From: a virus | Lineage: Duplodnaviria > Heunggongvirae > Uroviricota > Caudoviricetes | IMG/VR virus record: IMGVR_UViG_2703718846_000002 | Direction: 5' to 3' (one strand) | DNA length: 20,895 nucleotides | Shown: one piece after another, positions 20-17,588 of the stretch | Position numbering within the stretch: position 1 is the first letter of the stretch | Layout: every line of letters begins with the position of its first letter | Program-made: the position numbers and the translations under genes | Notes under the pieces: model-generated | What the model was told of the DNA's origin: nothing | The model's database searches: none | The model's input: only the letters and a program-made list of their open reading frames with translations

Positions 20-1315
20 TTAATTTTTCATTGCTTCGTTATGGGGCATGGTTGGGGCAAACTCGCTTAACTGTGTATTTAACAAAGCTACCTGTGCATT
101 ATTGTTTTCAGACATCCATTTTCCGTATACCTGAAATACCATTTGCGCATCTGCATGGCCCATCTGGTTTGCTATAAATGCCGGGTTAGCACCAGCTGTC
201 AGCGACCAGCAGGCATAAGTATGTCTCGACTGATATGATTTTCGATGGCGGAGTCCGGCACGTTTTATCGCTGCGTCCCACATCTGCCTTATTGAGTCAA
301 CGGTAAAATGGTCACCATAATTTTTTACTCTCGCTGACACTTCAGGTTGAAAAACAAAGGTGCATTTTTGTTTTTCTGTTCTGCCATACTCTCTGAGGTG
401 AACATCAATGATATGCTCTTTGCTCAGTCTCGTTAATGTCATCTGACTCCGGAGAGCGTCGATTGCTGGCTTAATAAGATGAATGACCCGATTGGTTCCC
501 GCCTGTGTTTTTGGTACCGTGAAACGGTCTTTTGCTAAATTTCTCCTGATCACCATTGTTCCATTTTTCAGATCTATGTCCTCCCATCCAAGTGCACACA
601 GCTCACCAGGGCGAACTCCAGTATAAACAGAAACACACCATAAATTTTTTGCTTGCTGATTTCTGCACGCATCGATAAGACGGATAAATTCTTCCCGCGA
701 AAGAGGATCCGGAATGGTTCTTGATTCCTTTAATGGCGAGATCCCCTTAAACGGATTATCTGCCAGGTAACCGTTATCAACACCAAACTGGAACACGGCG
801 TTAAGATTTGTCATGTAATTATTTACAGTTACAGCCGATCTCCCTGGTTGTGTAACAATATAGTTACTTTTGGGGATCTGGTATCCAGTCAGTAACTCTT
901 TACGAACCTCCAGTAATTTTTCTTTATTAATCGATGAGGCAAGATTTTTTTCACCGATTATGCTCAGGATATTTTTGATGACGGCACGGTATGTGTTGAG
1001 TGATGTTTTGGCGACTTCAGTTTCTTTCAGTGCCAGAAATTTTTCAGCCAGTTCTTTTATGGTTAAATCTTGTCGGGCCTCACCAAATTTTTCCAGATTG
1101 CGTGAGGAGGGAAACTGTTTTGCATAGTCGAAAACACCAGTTTTTATTGCGTAACAAACAGAGGAGCGTAGTTCACCTGCAACGCGCCTGTTTTTTGCTG
1201 TGTCAGGAACCCCCAGATTTTCCCTGACTCTTACGTCTTTATAAACAAACCAGATACGTAATTTCCCTCCATGGTTTTCCACGCCTGTCGGATATTTCAT
1301 TTCAACTTCTCTCAT
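20..1315 (-). CDS. Phage tyrosine integrase
   Basis: 431-aa ORF with a C-terminal tyrosine-recombinase pattern (SRHTYA ... MGHADAQMVFQVYGKW) and an SD-like AGAGAAG before the internal Met at 1300, which may be the true start. Lies next to an excisionase-like gene. Confidence 0.85.
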   Translation of the reverse strand: MREVEMKYPTGVENHGGKLRIWFVYKDVRVRENLGVPDTAKNRRVAGELRSSVCYAIKTGVFDYAKQFPSSRNLEKFGEARQDLTIKELAEKFLALKETEVAKTSLNTYRAVIKNILSIIGEKNLASSINKEKLLEVRKELLTGYQIPKSNYIVTQPGRSAVTVNNYMTNLNAVFQFGVDNGYLADNPFKGISPLKESRTIPDPLSREEFIRLIDACRNQQAKNLWCVSVYTGVRPGELCALGWEDIDLKNGTMVIRRNLAKDRFTVPKTQAGTNRVIHLIKPAIDALRSQMTLTRLSKEHIIDVHLREYGRTEKQKCTFVFQPEVSARVKNYGDHFTVDSIRQMWDAAIKRAGLRHRKSYQSRHTYACWSLTAGANPAFIANQMGHADAQMVFQVYGKWMSENNNAQVALLNTQLSEFAPTMPHNEAMKN

Positions 1316-1334
1316 TAGTTAGTGTGGCTTTTAG

Positions 1335-1586
1335 TCAAGTAAGATGACGTCTTGGTCTCGCTGATGCCTGGCGCTCAATCCAGCGATCAATTTCTTCCAG
1401 GTTGTAAAAGCATGGACTGTTATCCCATGGCATACCGTCATGAGCGACATGCTTATATTCCCTTCCTTCCATAAACGATTTTTCCCGGGCCTTTTTTAAC
1501 GTACCTTTTTTTATTCCTTTCAGCGCAATTAACTGCTCTTCGGATACCCATTTGCCGGGAGAGACAATCATGATTACTTCGCTCAT
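1335..1586 (-). CDS. Excisionase-like small DNA-binding protein
   Basis: 83-aa ORF immediately upstream of int on the same strand. Contains an EGREYKH segment resembling the lambda Xis DGREYLFH region. Confidence 0.55.
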   Translation of the reverse strand: MSEVIMIVSPGKWVSEEQLIALKGIKKGTLKKAREKSFMEGREYKHVAHDGMPWDNSPCFYNLEEIDRWIERQASARPRRHLT

Positions 1587-1658
1587 CGATTTCTTTATCT
1601 CTTACATCAGACGAGCGCCGGTTGCAGAATACCAGTCACAACCGGCGACAGTTGAACA

Positions 1659-2387
1659 TTAAGAATCAGCCTGACTCGGGATCAGTTTTTGCCAGATAAC
1701 TGAAACGTATTTTGCCTGGTAACGGGCGTCATCAAGTGCATTATGGCGCTCACCTTCGAATGGAATAGCCGTTCTGGCATCGAAGTCTATGGCTTTCCCC
1801 AGCTCAACGATTGTGCGTACATCGCGATCGTTGTAGTAACGCCACGGGCAGGGGATCCCCTGCCGTTCGTATGAACGGCGCAAAATCGTGTTGTCGAAGT
1901 TGGCTCCATTTCCCCAAACCTGAACAAAAAATTCACCGGAGTTTTCGTCGATAAATTCTCGCAATTGTAACAGTGCATCATCTAACGGGATTTCATCGGT
2001 CATAATGGCAGATTGCGCTTCGCGTGATTGCTTAAGCCACCATTTAATGGTGTCCCGATCAATGACTCCGCCAGCAGTTTCCAGATCGATAGTCTTACTA
2101 AATTCCGGTCCCATATCTCCGGTTTGCGGATCGAAAAATATTGCACCTATTGAGATGATCGGGGCATCAGGATTTTTTCCCATGGTTTCAAGGTCGATCA
2201 TTAGATGGTCACACGTCCTGCTGGTGGATGTGATTTCGTGATGACCGTTCACCTTAATTGGGTGATCTGCCGTCTCGCCAGTTTCATTATCGCTATTGTG
2301 ATGCTGATTGCCGCCAGTGTTCTCCTTGTGTGGATGTTCAGCGCCTTCCATTTCCTCCGGATCATCTTCCTGAACTTCAACCTTCAC
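1659..2387 (-). CDS. DEDDh (DnaQ-like) 3'-5' exonuclease; conserved core probably starts at the internal Met near 2201
   Basis: Exo motifs can be read directly: MIDLETMG (D-x-E), VWGNGANFD, HNALDDA. The first 62 codons of the ORF are His- and acidic-rich and overlap the opposite-strand transposase frame, so they may be an artefactual extension. Confidence 0.8.
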   Translation of the reverse strand: MKVEVQEDDPEEMEGAEHPHKENTGGNQHHNSDNETGETADHPIKVNGHHEITSTSRTCDHLMIDLETMGKNPDAPIISIGAIFFDPQTGDMGPEFSKTIDLETAGGVIDRDTIKWWLKQSREAQSAIMTDEIPLDDALLQLREFIDENSGEFFVQVWGNGANFDNTILRRSYERQGIPCPWRYYNDRDVRTIVELGKAIDFDARTAIPFEGERHNALDDARYQAKYVSVIWQKLIPSQADS

Positions 2388-3484
2388 TCCTCAAAGGCCG
2401 TTACGCTGATTTTGGACCTACGTTTGCGTGCGAAAAATTGCGCGAGATACACGGTTTATCTTTATCCGTTGAAACTCTCAGAAAGTGGATGATAGAAGAG
2501 GGGTTATGGCGTGAACGCCGTCGTAAAATTGCCCGTATATATCAACGCCGCATGCGACGACCATCTTACGGTGAACTGATCCAGATTGATGGCTCACCTC
2601 ATGACTGGTTTGAAAATCGAGGCCCCAGATGTACACTGATCGTTTTCATTGATGATGCCACCAGTGCGTTGATGGCGTTGCGTTTTGTGCCTGCTGAAAC
2701 AACCCGGGCTTACATGGAAACCCTCCGGGGTTACCTTAATGATCATGGCGTACCGCTCGCTCTCTACTCTGATAGACACAGTATATTCAGGGTAAATAAC
2801 CCAGAGCGGGAAGGTGAGCTGACCCAGTTCACTCGTGCGATAAAGACACTGGGCATCGAGCCAATCCATGCCAACAGCCCGCAGGCAAAAGGGCGGGTAG
2901 AGCGCGCCAATCAGACACTACAGGACAGGCTGGTCAAAGAAATGCGGCTTCAGAATATCAGTGATATTGAAACAGCAAATGCATGGTTGCCGACCTTTAT
3001 TGAAGCCTATAACAACCGGTTCGCTACGTCGCCTCGTACTACTGATAATGCTCATCTTGATGTGCACCATTCTGAAGAGGAACTGGGTTATATCTTCAGC
3101 CTACAGGCGAAGCGCGTTCTGTCTAAAAATCTCACTTTCCAGTACAAAAGCAGTGCGTTTCAGGTACGCAGTGAGGGCCGGGGATATCGACTTAGGCATT
3201 CGGTTGTTACTGTATGCGAGAACTTTGACGGTGAAATTAACGTTCTGTATGACGGGAAAGCGCTGGGCTGGGAAAAGTATGTTGATGGCCCGGAGCCTAT
3301 ACCACTGGATGATGAAAAGAGTGTCCATGAACGAGTGGATAATGCCCGTATTGATTTACGCTCAAAATACTATGTTAAACCTAAAGCTGACCATCCCTGG
3401 CTTACGCGCCGAACGCAAAGTCATCAGCAAGTTAAGCCCCCGAAGTTACCTAAAAAGAAGCCTGATCCCGATAAAAAAGATTGA
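2258..3484 (+). CDS. DDE-superfamily transposase/integrase-core protein, probably a 5'-truncated IS remnant (IS481/ISNCY-like)
   Basis: DDE triad context IQIDGS ... YSDRHS ... SPQAKGRVERANQTLQDRL (E-x-x-N-x-T-L signature). The N-terminal part of the ORF is an out-of-frame read across the exonuclease upstream region, so the real N-terminus with its HTH seems to be missing. No terminal inverted repeats were identified. Confidence 0.55.
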   Translation: MGDLPSRQFHYRYCDADCRQCSPCVDVQRLPFPPDHLPELQPSLLKGRYADFGPTFACEKLREIHGLSLSVETLRKWMIEEGLWRERRRKIARIYQRRMRRPSYGELIQIDGSPHDWFENRGPRCTLIVFIDDATSALMALRFVPAETTRAYMETLRGYLNDHGVPLALYSDRHSIFRVNNPEREGELTQFTRAIKTLGIEPIHANSPQAKGRVERANQTLQDRLVKEMRLQNISDIETANAWLPTFIEAYNNRFATSPRTTDNAHLDVHHSEEELGYIFSLQAKRVLSKNLTFQYKSSAFQVRSEGRGYRLRHSVVTVCENFDGEINVLYDGKALGWEKYVDGPEPIPLDDEKSVHERVDNARIDLRSKYYVKPKADHPWLTRRTQSHQQVKPPKLPKKKPDPDKKD

Positions 3485-3920
3485 AACCAAGATCGATTCG
3501 GTTGAGTGCATATCCATTCATAGGGTAGATTCTTAAGTCGCGTTTCTGGTGTTCATTTTCGGGTGGTTTGTTACTTGTTTTACCGGGGATATGCCAGAAA
3601 CGCGCTGAGTCAGTCTGGGCGGTGCGCGTAATGAGGCGTTATGGTAAATAGCCTATGCTAATGTCCGCTAAGAGCAAGAAGCGGAAGTTGGCAGTTTTGT
3701 GGACTGTCCCCACAAAAGTGACTACAGAAATAGTTGCAATTCATAATTGATCATGGGTTGTCAGTTAAACTCGTGGCGATTTAAATAGACTAATTGGGAG
3801 TGCGTCCATTACTTATATCTTGTAATGTTAACTATCAGAAATGATACAAAGATAATATGTCTTTAAAGAAAAGGCTGATGGCGAAAAGTGGCCCGATGAG
3901 GGCCACAATACGGCTGTCAC

Positions 3921-4253
3921 TTAGACGTAAATATCAATGGTGCCAGCGGTATTTGTATCGTCTTTTTTCTCTTCTTTTTTATCAGGCTGAACTGTCGCGT
4001 CTTCATTCTTTTTCTCTGCCTGCTGCCTTAACAACTGCTCCAGTTGAGCCCAGAGGCTTTCAATTTGCTTCTGTACCAATGCAGCCATTTCTTTTTTCTG
4101 CTGTGTCGTCATCCCCTCTTCCGATGAGATTTTCCCAAGCTTTTCAGTCAGCACCTGAATTTGTCTTGTGATTTTGGCTATTTCTGATGTTCCTTCCGGG
4201 GCGGAGTTGTTTGAAATAACGGTTGAGGTATTTCCCTGAATTGTGACAGACAT
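3921..4253 (-). CDS. flxA: FlxA (flagellar-regulon protein of the Qin prophage)
   Basis: 110-aa ORF (MSVTIQGNTSTVISNNSAPEGTSEIAKITRQIQVLTEKL...) recognised as FlxA; preceded by a sigma-28-type promoter. Confidence 0.8.
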   Translation of the reverse strand: MSVTIQGNTSTVISNNSAPEGTSEIAKITRQIQVLTEKLGKISSEEGMTTQQKKEMAALVQKQIESLWAQLEQLLRQQAEKKNEDATVQPDKKEEKKDDTNTAGTIDIYV

Positions 4254-8590: not shown

Positions 8591-8803
8591 TCATGAAAGG
8601 TAAACATTGGCAGCTGAAGGGCCACGCAGACCATTTATCCGGCAAAATTCCACGCGTAATCCGGTGGTAATTTCTTCTGCATCGCGGAGATTGAGCGCTG
8701 AAACATGAAGCTGGACATCGATACGACCATCGGATGGGGTGATAAGACCCTTGCCGCTTTTGCCGTCAAAGGTTTTGACAATTCCTGTCATTTTACGGGA
8801 CAA
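8591..8803 (-). CDS. cspF: CspA-family cold-shock-like protein (CspF/CspH type)
   Basis: 70-aa [30 protein letters not shown]...[13 protein letters not shown], divergent from cspB as in Qin. The cspF versus cspH call rests on position only. Confidence 0.8.
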
Positions 8804-9103
8804 AAAAATTCCTTAATACTGATAACTTGGCGCACTATACACACGTTCCTGAAGAAAGCTATAGTTTTTTGATGGGGTTGAAGATGGCTGGATGTCTAAA
8901 ATAAACATTGCTTCATATGTTCAACTATGCGTTAATGATTGCGTCGGTTTGAAGAACAGACGATATACGAAGTAGTTTACTAAAGCAGTTCTCATTTCAG
9001 GTGTTATTCACTTATTCCTTCTTTGAGTCTCTCCAATTAAGTACGAAGTCGTTTCTGTTATGCAAACCATTTATGCCGAAAGGCTCAAGTTAAGGAATGT
9101 AGA

Positions 9104-9319
9104 ATGTCAAATAAAATGACTGGTTTAGTAAAATGGTTTAACGCTGATAAAGGTTTCGGCTTTATTTCTCCTGTTGATGGTAGTAAAGATGTGTTTGTGC
9201 ATTTTTCTGCGATTCAGAATGATAATTATCGAACCTTATTTGAAGGTCAAAAGGTTACCTTCTCTATAGAGAGTGGTGCTAAAGGTCCTGCAGCAGCAAA
9301 TGTCATCATTACTGATTAA
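9104..9319 (+). CDS. cspB: Cold-shock protein CspB
   Basis: 71-aa [70 protein letters not shown].... The 5' UTR carries a GCCGAAAGGC hairpin before the SD, as in cspA. Confidence 0.9.
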
Positions 9320-9600
9320 AATTCATCGCTCGTCTGTATACGATAACGAAGAAGGCTGATGCCTGAGTAGAGATACGGACAGAGTAGTGAATATTGGATC
9401 TCTTTAATAAAAAGTAAGGAGGTCCAATACATGAAACAATGGCTAGCATATTTGGCAAAATCTTAATCAGGAAAAGTATGCTAACCATTGTGGTGAAGTG
9501 CAGGTTTGCTGCATGAATAGTTTTACAGCAGAAGCTAACTGCTGGCATGGCAAAACAAAGTGCGTAAGTGGATGACTCCCACAAAAAGCACCACAATCTC

Positions 9601-9623
9601 AAACCCGCTCAGGCGGGTTTTTT
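9601..9623 (+). terminator. Intrinsic terminator with the same stem as the tR'-like hairpin
   Basis: AAACCCGC-TCAG-GCGGGTTT followed by TTTT. Confidence 0.55.
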
Positions 9624-9853: not shown

Positions 9854-10072
9854 AGGCTTTTCCTGTATAAATGGCCGTATACAGTACACTAAATATGAAA
9901 ACATTTCTCGTATTATTATTTTATATATGACTTTCTTTCAAAATAATTACCCACATTTTTAATGTGTATGTTTTTTTAGCGCCGTTGAGAACAACGTGTG
10001 CTGTCAAAACTACCCCGTAGACTCCGATCTTTTCAAACATATTGCACCATCCGTGTACATCGGGGTGAGGAT

Positions 10073-10288
10073 ATGAAATCAATGGATAAGTTAACAACAG
10101 GTGTTGCCTATGGCACATCGGCGGGTAATGCTGGTTTCTGGGCATTGCAGTTACTCGATAAAGTAACTCCGTCACAGTGGGCTGCAATCGGTGTGCTGGG
10201 TAGCCTGGTTTTTGGCCTGCTGACGTATCTGACAAATCTTTATTTCAAGATTAAAGAAGACAGGCGTAAGGCTGCGAGAGGAGAGTAA
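10073..10288 (+). CDS. essQ: Class II holin/pinholin (phage 21 S-type) with a dual-start motif
   Basis: 71 codons from MKSMDK... with a GGTGAGG SD. Met1-Lys-Ser-Met4 dual start and a hydrophobic core ([18 protein letters not shown]); the ORF track extends it upstream to 9998. Confidence 0.85.
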
Positions 10289-10292
10289 TCCA

Positions 10293-10600
10293 ATGACTCA
10301 AGACTATGAACTGGTTGTGAAAGGAGTCCGTAATTTTGAGAATAAAGTTACGGTAACTGTAGCCTTACAGGACAAAGAACGCTTTGACGGTGAAATTTTT
10401 GACCTGGATGTCGCCATGGACCGTGTTGAAGGAGCTGCGCTGGAGTTTTATGAGGCAGCAGCCAGAAGGAGCGTCCGGCAAGTCTTCCTGGAAGTAGCAG
10501 AAAAATTGTCAGAAAAAGTTGAGTCTTATCTGCAGCATCAGTACTCCTTTAAGATTGAAAATCCTGCCAATAAGCACGAGCGTCCTCATCATAAATATCT

Positions 10601-10604
<4 letters not shown>
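10293..10604 (+). CDS. ydfR: Hypothetical protein inside the lysis cassette (YdfR-like)
   Basis: 103-aa ORF with a strong GAGAGGAGAG SD inside the end of the holin gene; its stop overlaps the endolysin start (ATGA). Confidence 0.7.
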
Positions 10605-11628
<1,024 letters not shown>

Positions 11629-11990
11629 GGTAATATTAAATCGGAACATTTACATCGCGGAATGTAAAATTTAAATAAAAAGGACTCTTCCATGAGCCAA
11701 AATTCCTGAAATCTTAAGGGTAAGATAAAAGGTCTTAATCAGAATGACACGTTTTATTAATAAATAAAGCTATTCTTTCATTGCTGTGTTTTTCTTTACA
11801 AAAGTAATCCTTGCTATGGGTGGTTAATCATGCGTTAATGGTGTTCTGGTTTGTTACAAATTTATCTGAAGCAGTCATTGTTATAATTTTATTATTTGTA
11901 CCTCTTGAGATTTCCTTGTTGGTTTTTCTCTCTGATATTTTTTTTCGGACCATTCTGCCCAAGGGCTAATTTCTTCAAAAGGTAATAATT

Positions 11991-12203
11991 ATGTCTAACA
12001 AAATGACTGGTTTAGTGAAATGGTTTAACCCTGAAAAAGGTTTTGGTTTCATCACGCCGAAAGATGGCAGCAAAGATGTGTTTGTCCATTTCTCAGCAAT
12101 TCAGAGCAACGATTTCAAAACATTAACTGAGAATCAGGAAGTTGAATTTGGTATTGAGAACGGACCTAAAGGTCCTGCCGCTGTTCATGTAGTGGCGCTT
12201 TGA
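11991..12203 (+). CDS. cspI: Cold-shock protein CspI
   Basis: 70-aa [73 protein letters not shown]. Confidence 0.9.
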
Positions 12204-12407
12204 GGTAGACAATATTACAAACCATATTCACTTTAGATGCCCGTGTTGTCATGGTTCCCAGTATAGAACATCATCTTTTGATGTTTCTGACATGAATCCT
12301 TTCGGGGCAAAATGTATCTTTTGTAAATCAATGATGATTACATTTGATAATATTTCACAATACTTAAATGCCAGCCGTCTGTCGTTGGATTTAAAAAAGT
12401 GAAAATG

Positions 12408-14291: not shown

Positions 14292-14837
14292 ATGGAAGTC
14301 AACAAAAAGCAGCTGGCTGACATTTTCGGTGCGAGTATCCGTACCTTTCAGAACTGGCAGGAACAGGGAATGCCCGTTCTGCGAGGCGGTGGCAAGGGTA
14401 ATGAGGTGCTTTATGATTCTGCCGCCGTCATAAAATGGTATGCCGAAAGGGATGCTGAAATTGAGAACGAAAAGCTGCGCCGGGAGGTTGAAGAACTGCT
14501 GCAGGCCAGCGAGACAGATCTCCAGCCAGGGACTATTGAGTACGAACGCCATCGACTTACGCGTGCGCAGGCCGACGCACAGGAGCTGAAAAATGCCAGA
14601 GACTCCGCTGAAGTGGTGGAAACCGCATTCTGTACTTTCGTGCTGTCGCGGATCGCAGGTGAAATTGCCAGTATTCTCGACGGGATCCCCCTGTCGGTGC
14701 AGCGGCGTTTTCCGGAACTGGAAAACTGACATGTTGATTTCCTGAAACGGGATATCATCAAAGCCATGAACAAAGCAGCCGCGCTGGATGAACTGATACC
14801 GGGGTTGCTGAGTGAATATATCGAACAGTCAGGTTAA
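14292..14837 (+). pseudogene. nohA: Terminase small subunit Nu1 homolog interrupted by an in-frame TGA at 14727..14729
   Basis: 145-aa ORF MEVNKKQLADIFGASIRTFQNWQEQGMPVLRGGGKGNEVLYD... matches lambda Nu1. After the TGA the same frame continues [35 protein letters not shown] to a TAA, restoring a 181-codon Nu1. Confidence 0.8.
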
Positions 14838-17013
14838 CAGGCTGCGGCATTTTGTCCGCGCCGGGCTTCGCTCACTGTTCAGGCCGGAGCCACAGACCGC
14901 CGTTGAATGGGCGGATGCCAATTACTATCTCCCGAAAGAATCCGCATACCAGGAAGGGCGCTGGGAAACACTGCCCTTTCAGCGGGCCATCATGAATGCG
15001 ATGGGCAGCGACTACATCCGCGAGGTGAATGTGGTGAAGTCTGCCCGTGTTGGTTATTCCAAAATGCTGTTGGGTGTTTATGCCTACTTCATAGAGCATA
15101 AGCAGCGCAACACACTTATCTGGTTGCCGACGGATGGTGATGCCGAGAACTTTATGAAAACCCACGTTGAGCCGACCATCCGTGATATTCCTTCGCTGCT
15201 GGCGCTGGCCCCGTGGTATGGCAAAAAGCACCGGGATAACACGCTCACCATGAAGCGTTTCACCAATGGGCGTGGCTTCTGGTGCCTGGGCGGTAAAGCG
15301 GCAAAAAACTACCGTGAAAAGTCAGTGGATGTGGCGGGTTATGATGAACTTGCTGCCTTTGATGAGGATATTGAACAGGAAGGCTCTCCGACGTTCCTGG
15401 GCGATAAGCGTATTGAAGGCTCTGTCTGGCCAAAATCCATCCGTGGCTCCACGCCCAAAGTGAGAGGCACCTGCCAGATTGAGCGTGCAGCCAGTGAATC
15501 CCCGCATTTTATGCGTTTTCATGTTGCCTGCCCGCACTGCGGGAAGGAGCAGTACCTTAAATTTGGCGACAAAGAGACGCCGTTTGGCCTCAAATGGATG
15601 CCGGATGATCCCTCCAGCGTGTTTTATCTCTGTGAGCATAATGCCTGCGTCATCCGTCAGCAGGACGGAACGTTTAAGCCAGCATACAGCAACAACATGG
15701 CCTGGTGTCTGTGGGATATGCTGACCCACCCGCGCTACGGCATGGGTAAACGTCTTGGTGCGGCAGATGTGGATAAATGGGCGCTGTATGTCATCGGCCA
15801 GTGTTGCGACCAGTCGGTGCCGGACGGTTTTGGCGGCACGGAGCCGCGCATCACCTGTAATGCCTGGCTGACCACACAGCGTAAGGCGTGGGATGTTCTC
15901 AGTGATTTCTGCTCGGCGATGCGCTGTATGCCGGTATGGAACGGGCAGACGCTGACGTTCGTGCAGGACCGACCATCAGATAAGGTGTGGACCTATAACC
16001 GCAGTAATGTGGTGATGCCGGATGATGGCGCGCCGTTCCGCTACAGCTTCAGCGCCCTGAAGGACCGCCATAATGCCGTTGAGGTGAACTGGATTGACCC
16101 GGATAACGGCTGGGAGACGGCGACAGAGCTTGTGGAGGACACGCAGGCCATTGCCCGTTACGGTCGTAACGTCACGAAGATGGATGCCTTTGGCTGTACC
16201 AGGCGGGGGCAGGCGCACCGAGCCGGGCTGTGGCTGATTAAAACGGAACTGCTGGAAACGCAGACCGTGGACTTCAGCGTGGGTGCCGAAGGGCTTCGCC
16301 ATGTACCAGGTGATGTCATTGAAATCTGTGATGATGACTATGCGGGGATCAGCATCGGCGGGCGCGTGCTGGCGGTGAACAGCCAGACGCGGACACTGAC
16401 GCTCGACCGTGAAATCACGCTGCCATCCTCCGGCACCACGCTGATAAGCCTGGTTGACGGGCAGGGTAATCCGGTGAGCGTGGAGGTCCAGTCCGTCACC
16501 GACGGCGTGAAGGTGAAAGTGAGCCGGGTTCCTGACGGCGTTGCCGAGTACAGCGTGTGGGGGCTGAAGCTGCCGACGCTGCGTCAGCGCCTGTTCCGCT
16601 GTGTGAGTATCCGTGAGAACGATGACGGTACGTATGCCATCACTGCCGTGCAGCATGTACCGGAGAAAGAAGCCATCGTGGATACCCATAGTGTTAGCGG
16701 TACGGCTGCTTCAGCCGGTGCACATACCCATTCGATGACATTTGTTTCAGGTGGTTCCAGTGGTGCTCCGGGAAGTGGATCACCTGATTATTCTAAATAC
16801 AGTGTTAACACTTCTTCTGCAGGCGCTCATACGCACTCTGTATCGGGTACTGCTGCAAGCGCAGGTGCACACGCACATACTGTCGGTATTGGTGCTCATA
16901 CGCACTCCGTTGCGATTGGTTCACATGGACATACCATCACCGTTAACGCTGCTGGTAACGCGGAAAACACCGTCAAAAACATCGCATTTAACTATATTGT
17001 GAGGCTTGCGTAA
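14812..17013 (+). pseudogene. stfQ: In-frame chimera: terminase large subunit A N-terminus, internal segment of tail-tip protein J, side-tail-fibre C-terminus
   Basis: Residues 1 to about 284 ([19 protein letters not shown] ... CVIRQQ) match lambda gpA. The next segment ([28 protein letters not shown] ... [10 protein letters not shown]) matches internal lambda J. The last ~110 aa (GAHTHS repeats ... [11 protein letters not shown]) match the side-tail-fibre C-terminus. Junctions lie near 15663 and 16683. Confidence 0.8.
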
Positions 17014-17588
17014 TGGCATTCAGAATGAGTGAACAACCACGGACCATAAAAATTTATAATCTGCTGGCCGGAACTAATGAATTTATTGGTGAAGGTGACG
17101 CATATATTCCGCCTCATACAGGTCTGCCAGCAAACAGTACCGATATTGCACCGCCAGATATTCCGGCAGGCTTCGTGGCTGTTTTCAACAGTGATGAGGC
17201 ATCGTGGCATCTCGTTGAAGATCATCGGGGTAAAACGGTTTATGACGTGGCTTCCGGCGACGCGTTATTTATTTCTGAACTCGGTCCGTTACCGGAAAAT
17301 GTTACCTGGTTATCGCCGGGAGGGGAATATCAGAAGTGGAACGGCACAGCCTGGGTGAAGGATACGGAAGCAGAAAAACTGTTCCGGATCCGGGAGGCGG
17401 AAGAAACAAAAAACAGCCTGATGCAGATAGCCAGTGAGCATATAGCGCCGCTTCAGGATGCTGTGGATCTGGAGATCGCAACGGAGGAAGAAACCTTGTT
17501 GCTGGAAGCCTGGAAAAAGTATCGGGTGTTGCTGAACCGTGTTGATACATCAACTGCACCGGATATTGAATGGCCAGCACTGCCGTAG
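17013..17588 (+). CDS. tfaQ: Tail fibre assembly protein
   Basis: 191-aa [42 protein letters not shown]...; its start overlaps the stop of the fibre remnant (TAATG). Confidence 0.85.

Follow-up and report, generated by a model that had tools for sequence, protein, structure and literature searches.

Described antiholins and holin regulators of phages include the dual-start antiholin S21-71, T4 RI and RIII, P1 LydB, and P2 LysA and LysB. Another set of phage proteins, comprising T4 Srd, T7 gp0.7 and phiKZ Dip, acts on RNase E. Extra genes in otherwise collinear phage genomes have been described as morons, and in applying this term we follow the Juhala/Hendrix definition (PMC3594210). Here we compare these systems with ydfR, a gene on the plus strand of a 20,895-nucleotide stretch of Caudoviricetes DNA (IMG/VR record IMGVR_UViG_2703718846_000002; hereafter the window). 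The gene separates the pinholin and the signal-arrest-release (SAR) endolysin of a lysis cassette. Our analysis indicates that ydfR is probably an accessory gene rather than a core or dedicated lysis gene. More tentatively, we favor the reading that it is an optional, moron-type passenger of the late operon, which encodes an RNase E-binding domain and in addition forms a bridge to an endolysin gene that lacks a Shine-Dalgarno (SD) sequence.

A known gene without an assigned function

The window holds a Qin-type cryptic prophage that is 99.8% identical to Qin of Escherichia coli MG1655 across 11.5 kb, in reverse orientation, and ydfR lies in the Qin lysis cassette, downstream of a Q-type antiterminator gene. 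Both the DNA and the protein are 100% identical to MG1655 ydfR (b1555) and to a gene of phage PhiR42_1. RefSeq names the product “YdfR family protein”. It matches the Pfam family DUF1327 (PF07041) over the entire model (positions 1-93 of 93) with a score of 179.9 bits, for a cut-off of 25 (E = 1.1e-53), and PHROG families 34145, 2735, 2091, 406 and 1085 match as well; no NCBIfam model for YdfR was found. The gene is already known and annotated, yet its family is without an assigned function. The open reading frame (ORF) and its translation signals are as follows.

10293-10604, plus strand: ydfR, ATG start, encoding a 103-residue DUF1327 protein equal to K-12 YdfR (P76160)
10279-10283, plus strand: SD sequence AGGAG of ydfR, within the final codons of the holin gene and 9 nt 5′ of the ATG at 10293, read from the sequence
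10601-10604, plus strand: ATGA start/stop overlap of ydfR and the endolysin gene rrrQ, a site for termination-reinitiation coupling, read from the sequence

An initial annotation, made from the DNA letters alone, had noted a 103-residue acidic protein encoded between a pinholin and a SAR endolysin, with a strong SD sequence inside the 3′ end of the holin gene and an ATGA overlap with the endolysin start. All three observations hold. The ORF call is confirmed, the neighbors match PF04971 and PF00959, and YdfR is mildly acidic (pI 5.56, net charge −4), its N-terminal domain more so (pI 4.6, charge −5.5). The holin ORF stops with TAA at 10286-10288, and the duplex between the ydfR SD sequence and the 3′ end of 16S rRNA, at −9.5 kcal/mol, is the strongest of the cassette. 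The ydfR stop codon (TGA, 10602-10604) overlaps the endolysin ATG (10601-10603), whose leader in the window has zero SD complementarity (+1.2 kcal/mol). No membrane segment was found in YdfR, the best 19-residue window reaching a Kyte-Doolittle value of only 0.67, and the protein is predicted to be soluble and cytoplasmic. A chance ORF is ruled out by the family match and by the purifying selection described below, and an Rfam search revealed no RNA element in the ydfR region.

Of 5426 complete E. coli genomes, 3647, or about two thirds, contain DNA that matches ydfR, and the full-length 103-residue allele occurs in 1789 of them, mostly with at least 99% identity. When 5.8 billion protein clusters were searched twice, 267 and 231 matches were obtained, nearly all from Escherichia or Shigella; a profile search, run against 1.84 billion representatives, yielded 109. 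DUF1327 is a small and taxonomically narrow family, whose ydfR-type members reside in the lysis cassettes of many lambdoid phages, Stx1a and Stx2c phages among them (Stx, Shiga toxin).

ydfR is an optional insert in phage lysis cassettes

Phage records with an S21-type holin number 438 and those with DUF1327 number 100; the DUF1327 gene is missing from 338 of the 438. Contiguity of S, R and Rz in phage-21-type cassettes, which the initial annotation had stated for phage 21, is found in the relatives 434, cdtI, SfI and 24B, and this contiguity marks ydfR as an extra gene. An overlap of the holin gene with the endolysin start makes S and R directly contiguous in 434, cdtI, SfI and a Klebsiella phage. 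When a ydfR-type gene is present, its start lies 4 nt after the holin stop in 20 of the 20 Escherichia phage records checked (nine loci read directly and eleven with coordinates in both the DUF1327 and the holin listings).

The translation signals of the endolysin gene differ between the two kinds of cassette. In every ydfR-bearing cassette examined, the leader of the endolysin gene is conserved and AU-rich (...GATAAATATCCATGA) and has no SD sequence. The calculated SD duplex of the endolysin gene is +0.6 to +1.2 kcal/mol behind a ydfR-type gene versus −7.1 to −8.5 kcal/mol in cassettes with direct S-R contiguity. In phage 24B, the same SD sequence and the same 4-nt spacer that precede ydfR lead straight into a 177-residue endolysin. 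Because this SD serves R in 24B, and R behind ydfR has none, the insert has captured the ribosome-binding site of the endolysin. In the Escherichia lambdoid phages, insertion would have occurred exactly at the endolysin start, with the SD sequence at the end of the holin gene being taken over and the endolysin left without one.

SD-less endolysin leaders were recorded at 10580-10603 of the window and in loci L001-L004, L009 and L028. Separately, Stx-type cassettes carry ‘ant’, an antirepressor-like gene, between endolysin and Rz (L003, 3700-4269; L004, 4568-5137; L007, 2825-3394). The ‘ant’ passenger of BP-4795, 24B and Stx2-86 resembles ydfR in being inserted among core lysis genes, but it occupies a different junction and encodes an unrelated protein. 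Evidently, the lysis cassettes of lambdoid phages can accommodate extra genes at more than one junction.

Origin of the short Qin allele

A longer relative of the window allele is found on a metagenomic E. coli phage contig (L028/L029), where the order is S, a 174-residue YdfR, a convergent 93-residue ORF, a spacer and R. The 174-residue protein has the same N-terminal domain as the window protein and the same tail to about residue 97. The convergent ORF belongs to phrog_2572 and overlaps the 3′ end of ydfR by 59 nt. Positions 10047-10590 of the window align to 2254-2798 of L028, and positions 10595-11134 align to 3379-3918. As a result, 580 bp of L028, consisting of the 3′ part of ydfR and the convergent ORF, are absent from the window. 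The corresponding feature of the window is given below.

10583-10600, plus strand: putative deletion junction (about 10590/10591) followed by a remnant of the SD-less endolysin leader, from the L028 alignment, with microhomology TCCTCAT/TCCTGAT

The junction, CGTCCTCATC joined to ATAAATATCTATGA, sits at this near-repeat. Since the other cassettes examined all share the full R leader, the 580-bp difference is most simply read as a deletion in the Qin lineage rather than as an insertion into a short form. The event would have removed the original 3′ part of ydfR together with its convergent partner ORF, and the truncated frame would then run into the endolysin ATGA. That tetranucleotide is already present, as CCATGA, in each endolysin leader of a ydfR-bearing cassette examined, so the simplest view is that the deletion produced the overlap incidentally and that it is no trait of the family. 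We therefore reject the reading in which ATGA is a designed feature shared by the family: the overlap comes directly after the 580-bp gap, and the ydfR stop codons of other ydfR-bearing cassettes lie 8-50 nt or more upstream of the endolysin start.

The overlap may nonetheless have consequences in the short allele. Because R has no SD sequence of its own, ATGA likely gives termination-reinitiation coupling, such that endolysin translation probably depends on that of ydfR and ribosomes finishing ydfR would likely feed the endolysin start. The initial annotation had concluded that ydfR must be co-expressed at lysis. Co-expression is the natural expectation from the late-operon site and from the gene's own strong SD sequence. 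The overlap, which the initial annotation took as a further sign of it, coincides with the 580-bp gap and is most simply a deletion junction. An identical short-allele arrangement is found in HannyBb and PhiR42_1, both isolated phages, which argues that the allele is not mere debris of a cryptic prophage.

A conserved 72-residue domain with interchangeable tails

Comparison of YdfR-type proteins divides the window protein into two parts.

10293-10508, plus strand: conserved N-terminal domain, residues 1-72, delimited by gapless alignment, PHROG overlap and an AlphaFold2 model
10509-10601, plus strand: lineage-specific tail, residues 73-103, with a helical continuation followed by a basic, His-rich segment predicted to be disordered; pI 8.1

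All five PHROG families align to YdfR over residues 1-76 only, and DNA similarity to other E. coli ydfR alleles ends at about nucleotide 206. Beyond this point, the alleles carry unrelated, interchangeable C-termini, giving total lengths of 103 to 333 residues. Stand-alone homologs of 72-76 residues align without gaps to the N-terminal domain (alignment of Escherichia, Serratia, Sodalis, Pantoea and Cronobacter sequences), with Y53 and E54 invariant. YdfR has the conserved core features, namely a Y-E-L-x-V-K start, a V-T-V strand and an F/Y-Y-E-A helix start. AlphaFold2 predicts antiparallel strands at residues 5-14, 18-27 and 34-43 and, starting at residue 50, a long helix. The predicted local distance difference test score is 72-88 across the domain and less than 50 from residue 77 onward. 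Together these data suggest that the functional unit of ydfR is a 72-residue β-β-β-α domain.

The domain is under purifying selection, with ratios of nonsynonymous to synonymous substitution rates (dN/dS) of 0.16-0.35. N-terminal domains of the Qin type and the Stx type share only 40-47% protein identity. Between these two clades, the domain nevertheless diverges much faster than its neighbors, dN reaching 0.46 compared with 0.15 in the holin and 0.06 in the endolysin. The tail region has three nonsynonymous changes versus one synonymous change, numbers too few to show constraint.

Homologs outside lysis cassettes and their convergent partners

Named stand-alone homologs come from Serratia sp. 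JSRIV004, Sodalis ligni, Pantoea piersonii and Cronobacter malonaticus. The loci recovered for distant homologs place the gene at several sites.

Between the tail assembly chaperone/DUF1799 gene and the tape measure gene: L012, L013 and L014
Between gpM and gpL: L015, L016, L017, L022 and L027
Before gpM: L011
After gpK/gpI: L025
After Rz: L021

The first of these sites is the position of the original moron, HK97 gene 15 (PMC3594210). From this distribution, a ydfR-type gene does not appear to be specific to lysis cassettes.

All recovered loci except that of Sodalis have a small convergent ORF 12-28 nt past the homolog stop codon (about 50 nt in L021). The partner ORFs encode 70-186 residues (L010-L015, L021, L022, L025 and L027, at about 700-4000 in each; L004, 3317-3631; L028, 2967-3248). 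They are spread over at least five unrelated PHROGs without known function and thus form no single detectable family. They match no Pfam family, and PADLOC gave noise only for two of them (E = 0.014 and 0.027). A convergent ORF also adjoins some Escherichia alleles (Stx2-86 gp06 and L028), and there is none at the window copy. Five of seven spacers examined have, between the convergent stop codons, a GC-rich hairpin that carries A and T tracts and resembles a bidirectional terminator. Scans for promoters adjoining the distant homologs gave nothing convincing.

One pair type, comprising DUF1327 and a partner of 99-101 residues, occurs at three tail positions (L011, L025 and L027), and for this reason its two genes seem to travel together. 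In this pair, dN is 0.14-0.18, with dS saturated, for the partner and 0.41-0.60 for DUF1327. A scan of genome contigs with the Serratia homolog (P0310) gave no matches; viral contigs yielded none with P0314 and only E. coli Stx-type cassettes again with P0310.

Reported binding to RNase E and mutant phenotypes

The only biochemical data on YdfR come from Göpel et al. (2026), who used RNase G as bait against a two-hybrid library of K-12 and recovered three identical clones of ydfR codons 1-72 (PMC13232886). This fragment is exactly the domain that we bounded by comparison. Signals of YdfR(1-72) were stronger with RNase E constructs that include the catalytic half of the enzyme, a full-length YdfR fusion was positive with Rne(1-597) only, and Rne(1-598)-FLAG co-purified with Strep-tagged YdfR, as did nucleic acid resistant to DNase. 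Overexpression of YdfR was non-toxic and altered few transcripts, and ydfR transcripts were almost nil in K-12 under standard conditions (all PMC13232886).

In other screens, the Keio ydfR deletion scores in an assay of envelope leakiness to chlorophenol red-β-D-galactopyranoside (CPRG), as do deletions of the Qin genes ydfU, ydfA, ydfB and ydfD (PMC3879167; ydfR in supplementary files 2 and 5). The ydfR phenotype is most simply explained as polar, with the kan cassette driving the downstream SAR endolysin. More generally, deletion or replacement of ydfR, as in the Keio mutant, would alter endolysin expression and can mimic a “lysis” phenotype. An overexpression screen lists ydfR with a 3-fold rise in the minimum inhibitory concentration of streptomycin (PMC12924614). 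Our literature search found no paper treating ydfR in a lysis context.

Possible roles of YdfR

Under the reading that we tentatively favor, ydfR would be carried as an optional passenger in late operons of temperate Enterobacterales phages, and its acidic 72-residue domain would serve as a cytoplasmic protein-binding module. The only documented candidate partner is the catalytic N-terminal half of RNase E, with RNase G apparently bound more weakly and RNA co-purifying. YdfR might then act on host RNA decay late in infection, and the mild overexpression phenotype together with the co-purifying RNA would point to a specific adaptor or modulator and not to a global inhibitor. That RNase E is the physiological target of YdfR is possible but rather doubtful.

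Several observations weigh against this reading. The link to RNase E comes from one study, by two-hybrid assays and overexpression pull-downs, whose authors concede that a contaminant may be the RNA carrier, and the effect of YdfR on the transcriptome is nearly absent (PMC13232886). An acidic domain is atypical as an RNA binder, and neither the sequence nor the fold of YdfR gives a functional clue: a profile search of PDB sequences returned nothing below E = 0.29, and Foldseek against viral models found uncharacterized proteins alone, with E of 5e-3 or worse. As for the passenger character of the gene, a crude consensus scan found no sigma-70-like promoter between holin and ydfR, no terminator of its own was found for the window copy, which continues directly into rrrQ, and a GC content of 0.41-0.475 across ydfR is barely distinct from the 0.48-0.505 of holin and endolysin. 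Finally, occupation of the same post-holin site in all 20 records, by clades with such divergent domains, could reflect a lysis-linked function rather than one inherited insertion.

The last point bears on the proposal of the initial annotation that YdfR is a lysis modulator, either an antiholin-like protein or an endolysin chaperone. In this scenario, the time of lysis is tuned by YdfR through binding to either the basic C-terminal tail of the pinholin or the SAR endolysin that awaits export. The invariant position with its 4-nt spacer in two divergent clades is what such a function would leave behind, and the start/stop coupling to the endolysin gene, the opposite charges of the N-terminal domain (−5.5) and the holin C-tail (+2.8), and the recovery of the Keio ydfR deletion in the CPRG screen (PMC3879167) can all be read in the same way. 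The comparative data point elsewhere: the 338 phage records with an S21-type holin and no ydfR-type gene belong to phages that lyse without it, homologs of other genera sit in tail operons or after Rz, and YdfR has no similarity to lysis families in Pfam or PHROGs. A membrane antiholin is ruled out, as YdfR has no hydrophobic segment. S21-type holins, moreover, already encode their own antiholin through the dual start. The Keio phenotype is probably due to the kan cassette, as discussed above, overexpression in K-12 causes no growth phenotype, and the reported biochemistry points to RNase E and RNA instead of lysis proteins (PMC13232886). We consider a dedicated role in lysis timing improbable.

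Two further proposals build on the convergent partner. In one, which strikes us as unlikely, DUF1327 is the conserved but fast-evolving half of a mobile two-gene module, the other half being a variable small ORF on the opposite strand beyond a terminator-like hairpin; the module hops among late-operon sites of temperate Enterobacterales phages, and the 72-residue domain docks on RNase E or RNase G; docking would direct or block the cleavage of particular RNAs, or serve phage-host or phage-phage conflict, and Qin ydfR would have lost its partner and been co-opted as a translational bridge to the SD-less SAR endolysin gene. In the other, for which we see a similarly small chance, DUF1327 and its partner form a defense, superinfection-exclusion or anti-defense cassette whose partner was likewise lost from Qin. 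The occurrence of the genes at classical moron sites, including that of HK97 gp15 (PMC3594210), fits a conflict cassette, as do the small, acidic and soluble proteins, the pairing of a conserved gene with small partners drawn from at least five unrelated PHROG families, the GC-rich hairpin between convergent stops at several loci, and the contrast between a fast DUF1327 (dN 0.41-0.60) and a constrained partner (dN 0.14-0.18, dS saturated). It is opposed by the PADLOC search, which gave no match beyond noise for YdfR, two distant homologs or the partners, by the lack of a detected promoter for expression from the prophage, by the near-nil ydfR transcripts in K-12 under standard conditions (PMC13232886), and by the lack of a partner at the window copy.

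It is also conceivable, though very unlikely in our estimation, that the Qin protein itself is irrelevant and that its frame persists solely as a bridge acting in cis, or as a neutral remnant, by which ribosomes pass from the SD sequence in the holin gene to the SD-less endolysin start. The 103-residue form does lack the 580 bp of its longer relative, the endolysin start lies inside ATGA, Qin is a cryptic prophage, and the few changes in the tail (three nonsynonymous, one synonymous) do not show constraint. A remnant would not be expected to keep an intact N-terminal domain under purifying selection, however, nor to be retained as an identical allele in the isolated phages HannyBb and PhiR42_1 and as a full-length allele, mostly at least 99% identical, in 1789 genomes. 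A bridge is not generally required either, as the stop codons 8-50 nt or more upstream in other cassettes attest, and expressed YdfR is stable and binds a defined partner (PMC13232886).

Other features of the window

The remaining genes of the lysis cassette are listed here.

10073-10288, plus strand: essQ, S21-type pinholin of 71 residues with dual start Met1/Met4 (PF04971, E = 4.4e-34; PHROG holin families; annotated essQ in MG1655)
10601-11134, plus strand: rrrQ, R21-like SAR-type endolysin of 177 residues with E35/D44/T50 (PF00959, Phage_lysozyme, E = 1e-23; phrog_7, endolysin)
11131-11628, plus strand: rzpQ, Rz-like i-spanin, DUF2514 (PF10721, E = 3e-38; phrog_312, Rz-like spanin)
11324-11578, plus strand: rzoQ, o-spanin lipoprotein encoded within rzpQ in another reading frame (phrog_11621; MG1655 annotation mapped to the window)

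The N-terminus of RrrQ, read from the translated ORF, is a Gly/Ala-rich, SAR-like segment. The cassette is flanked by two Rfam cspA thermoregulator elements, the leaders of cspB and cspI, at 8943-9335 and 11845-12230. Together with cspF (8591-8803, minus strand), cspB and cspI make three cold-shock genes that are passengers of the late region. A strong, terminator-like hairpin lies 3′ of cspB at 9601-9620. The essQ-ydfR cluster is reported to be cold-induced (PMC13232886), possibly via read-through from cspB.

Positions 1180-3299 and 14821-16824 of the window could not be aligned to the MG1655 Qin segment that we retrieved, and the remainder is 98.6-100% identical. The unaligned stretches correspond to the dicB/ydfE/IS2 side and the tail-fiber/pin side, where the window copy of Qin therefore differs from that of K-12. 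Positions 17356-17554 (plus strand) match the Rfam RNA family IS009 with 221.5 bits.

Comparison with known systems

Within the DUF1327 family (PF07041), the window protein is the type member, located at the same site of the Qin lysis cassette and without differences. Several outcomes of the comparison are apparently new to the literature: the 72-residue boundary backed by stand-alone homologs, the range of insertion sites and the architecture with convergent partners, the proposed deletion origin of the Qin allele, and the rule that endolysin genes behind ydfR-type genes lack an SD sequence. For experimental work, the comparison also delimits the domain clearly (residues 1-72) and points to natural partner genes. 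Should the connection to RNase E prove physiological, YdfR would be a late product of temperate phages that acts on the catalytic core of the principal enzyme of RNA decay. We know of no such case from a temperate phage, the phage RNase E effectors Srd, gp0.7 and Dip being from virulent phages.

Like antiholins and other holin regulators, ydfR is adjacent to a holin gene and is probably co-translated with lysis genes. Unlike them, YdfR has neither a membrane or periplasmic domain nor homology to these proteins, the gene is not obligatory for S21-type cassettes, and its homologs occur elsewhere too. Classical morons such as HK97 gp15 and lambda bor and lom provide a closer parallel, as ydfR is likewise an extra gene in some otherwise collinear phages. 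Accordingly, the moron alternative raised by the initial annotation fits the comparative data better than a lysis modulator does, but only in part: ydfR has the character of extra DNA, and neither the promoter nor the terminator of its own that the definition also calls for was detected at the window copy. Several distant DUF1327 copies do have a terminator-like hairpin after them, as classical morons have. The products of known morons are envelope proteins whose genes are expressed in the prophage state, whereas YdfR is predicted to be soluble and cytoplasmic, and its gene reads in the direction of the late operon.

Among proteins that act on RNase E, YdfR shares with Srd, gp0.7 and Dip that it is phage-encoded, but its gene belongs to the late operon of a temperate phage and theirs are early genes of virulent phages. 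YdfR has no similarity in sequence or fold to these proteins or to RapZ. Compared with established RNase E modulators, YdfR is so far a reported binder only, whose overexpression alters few transcripts. Its behavior most nearly parallels that of RapZ, the host adaptor of RNase E, in that YdfR likewise is reported to bind the catalytic half of the enzyme with RNA co-purifying (PMC13232886).

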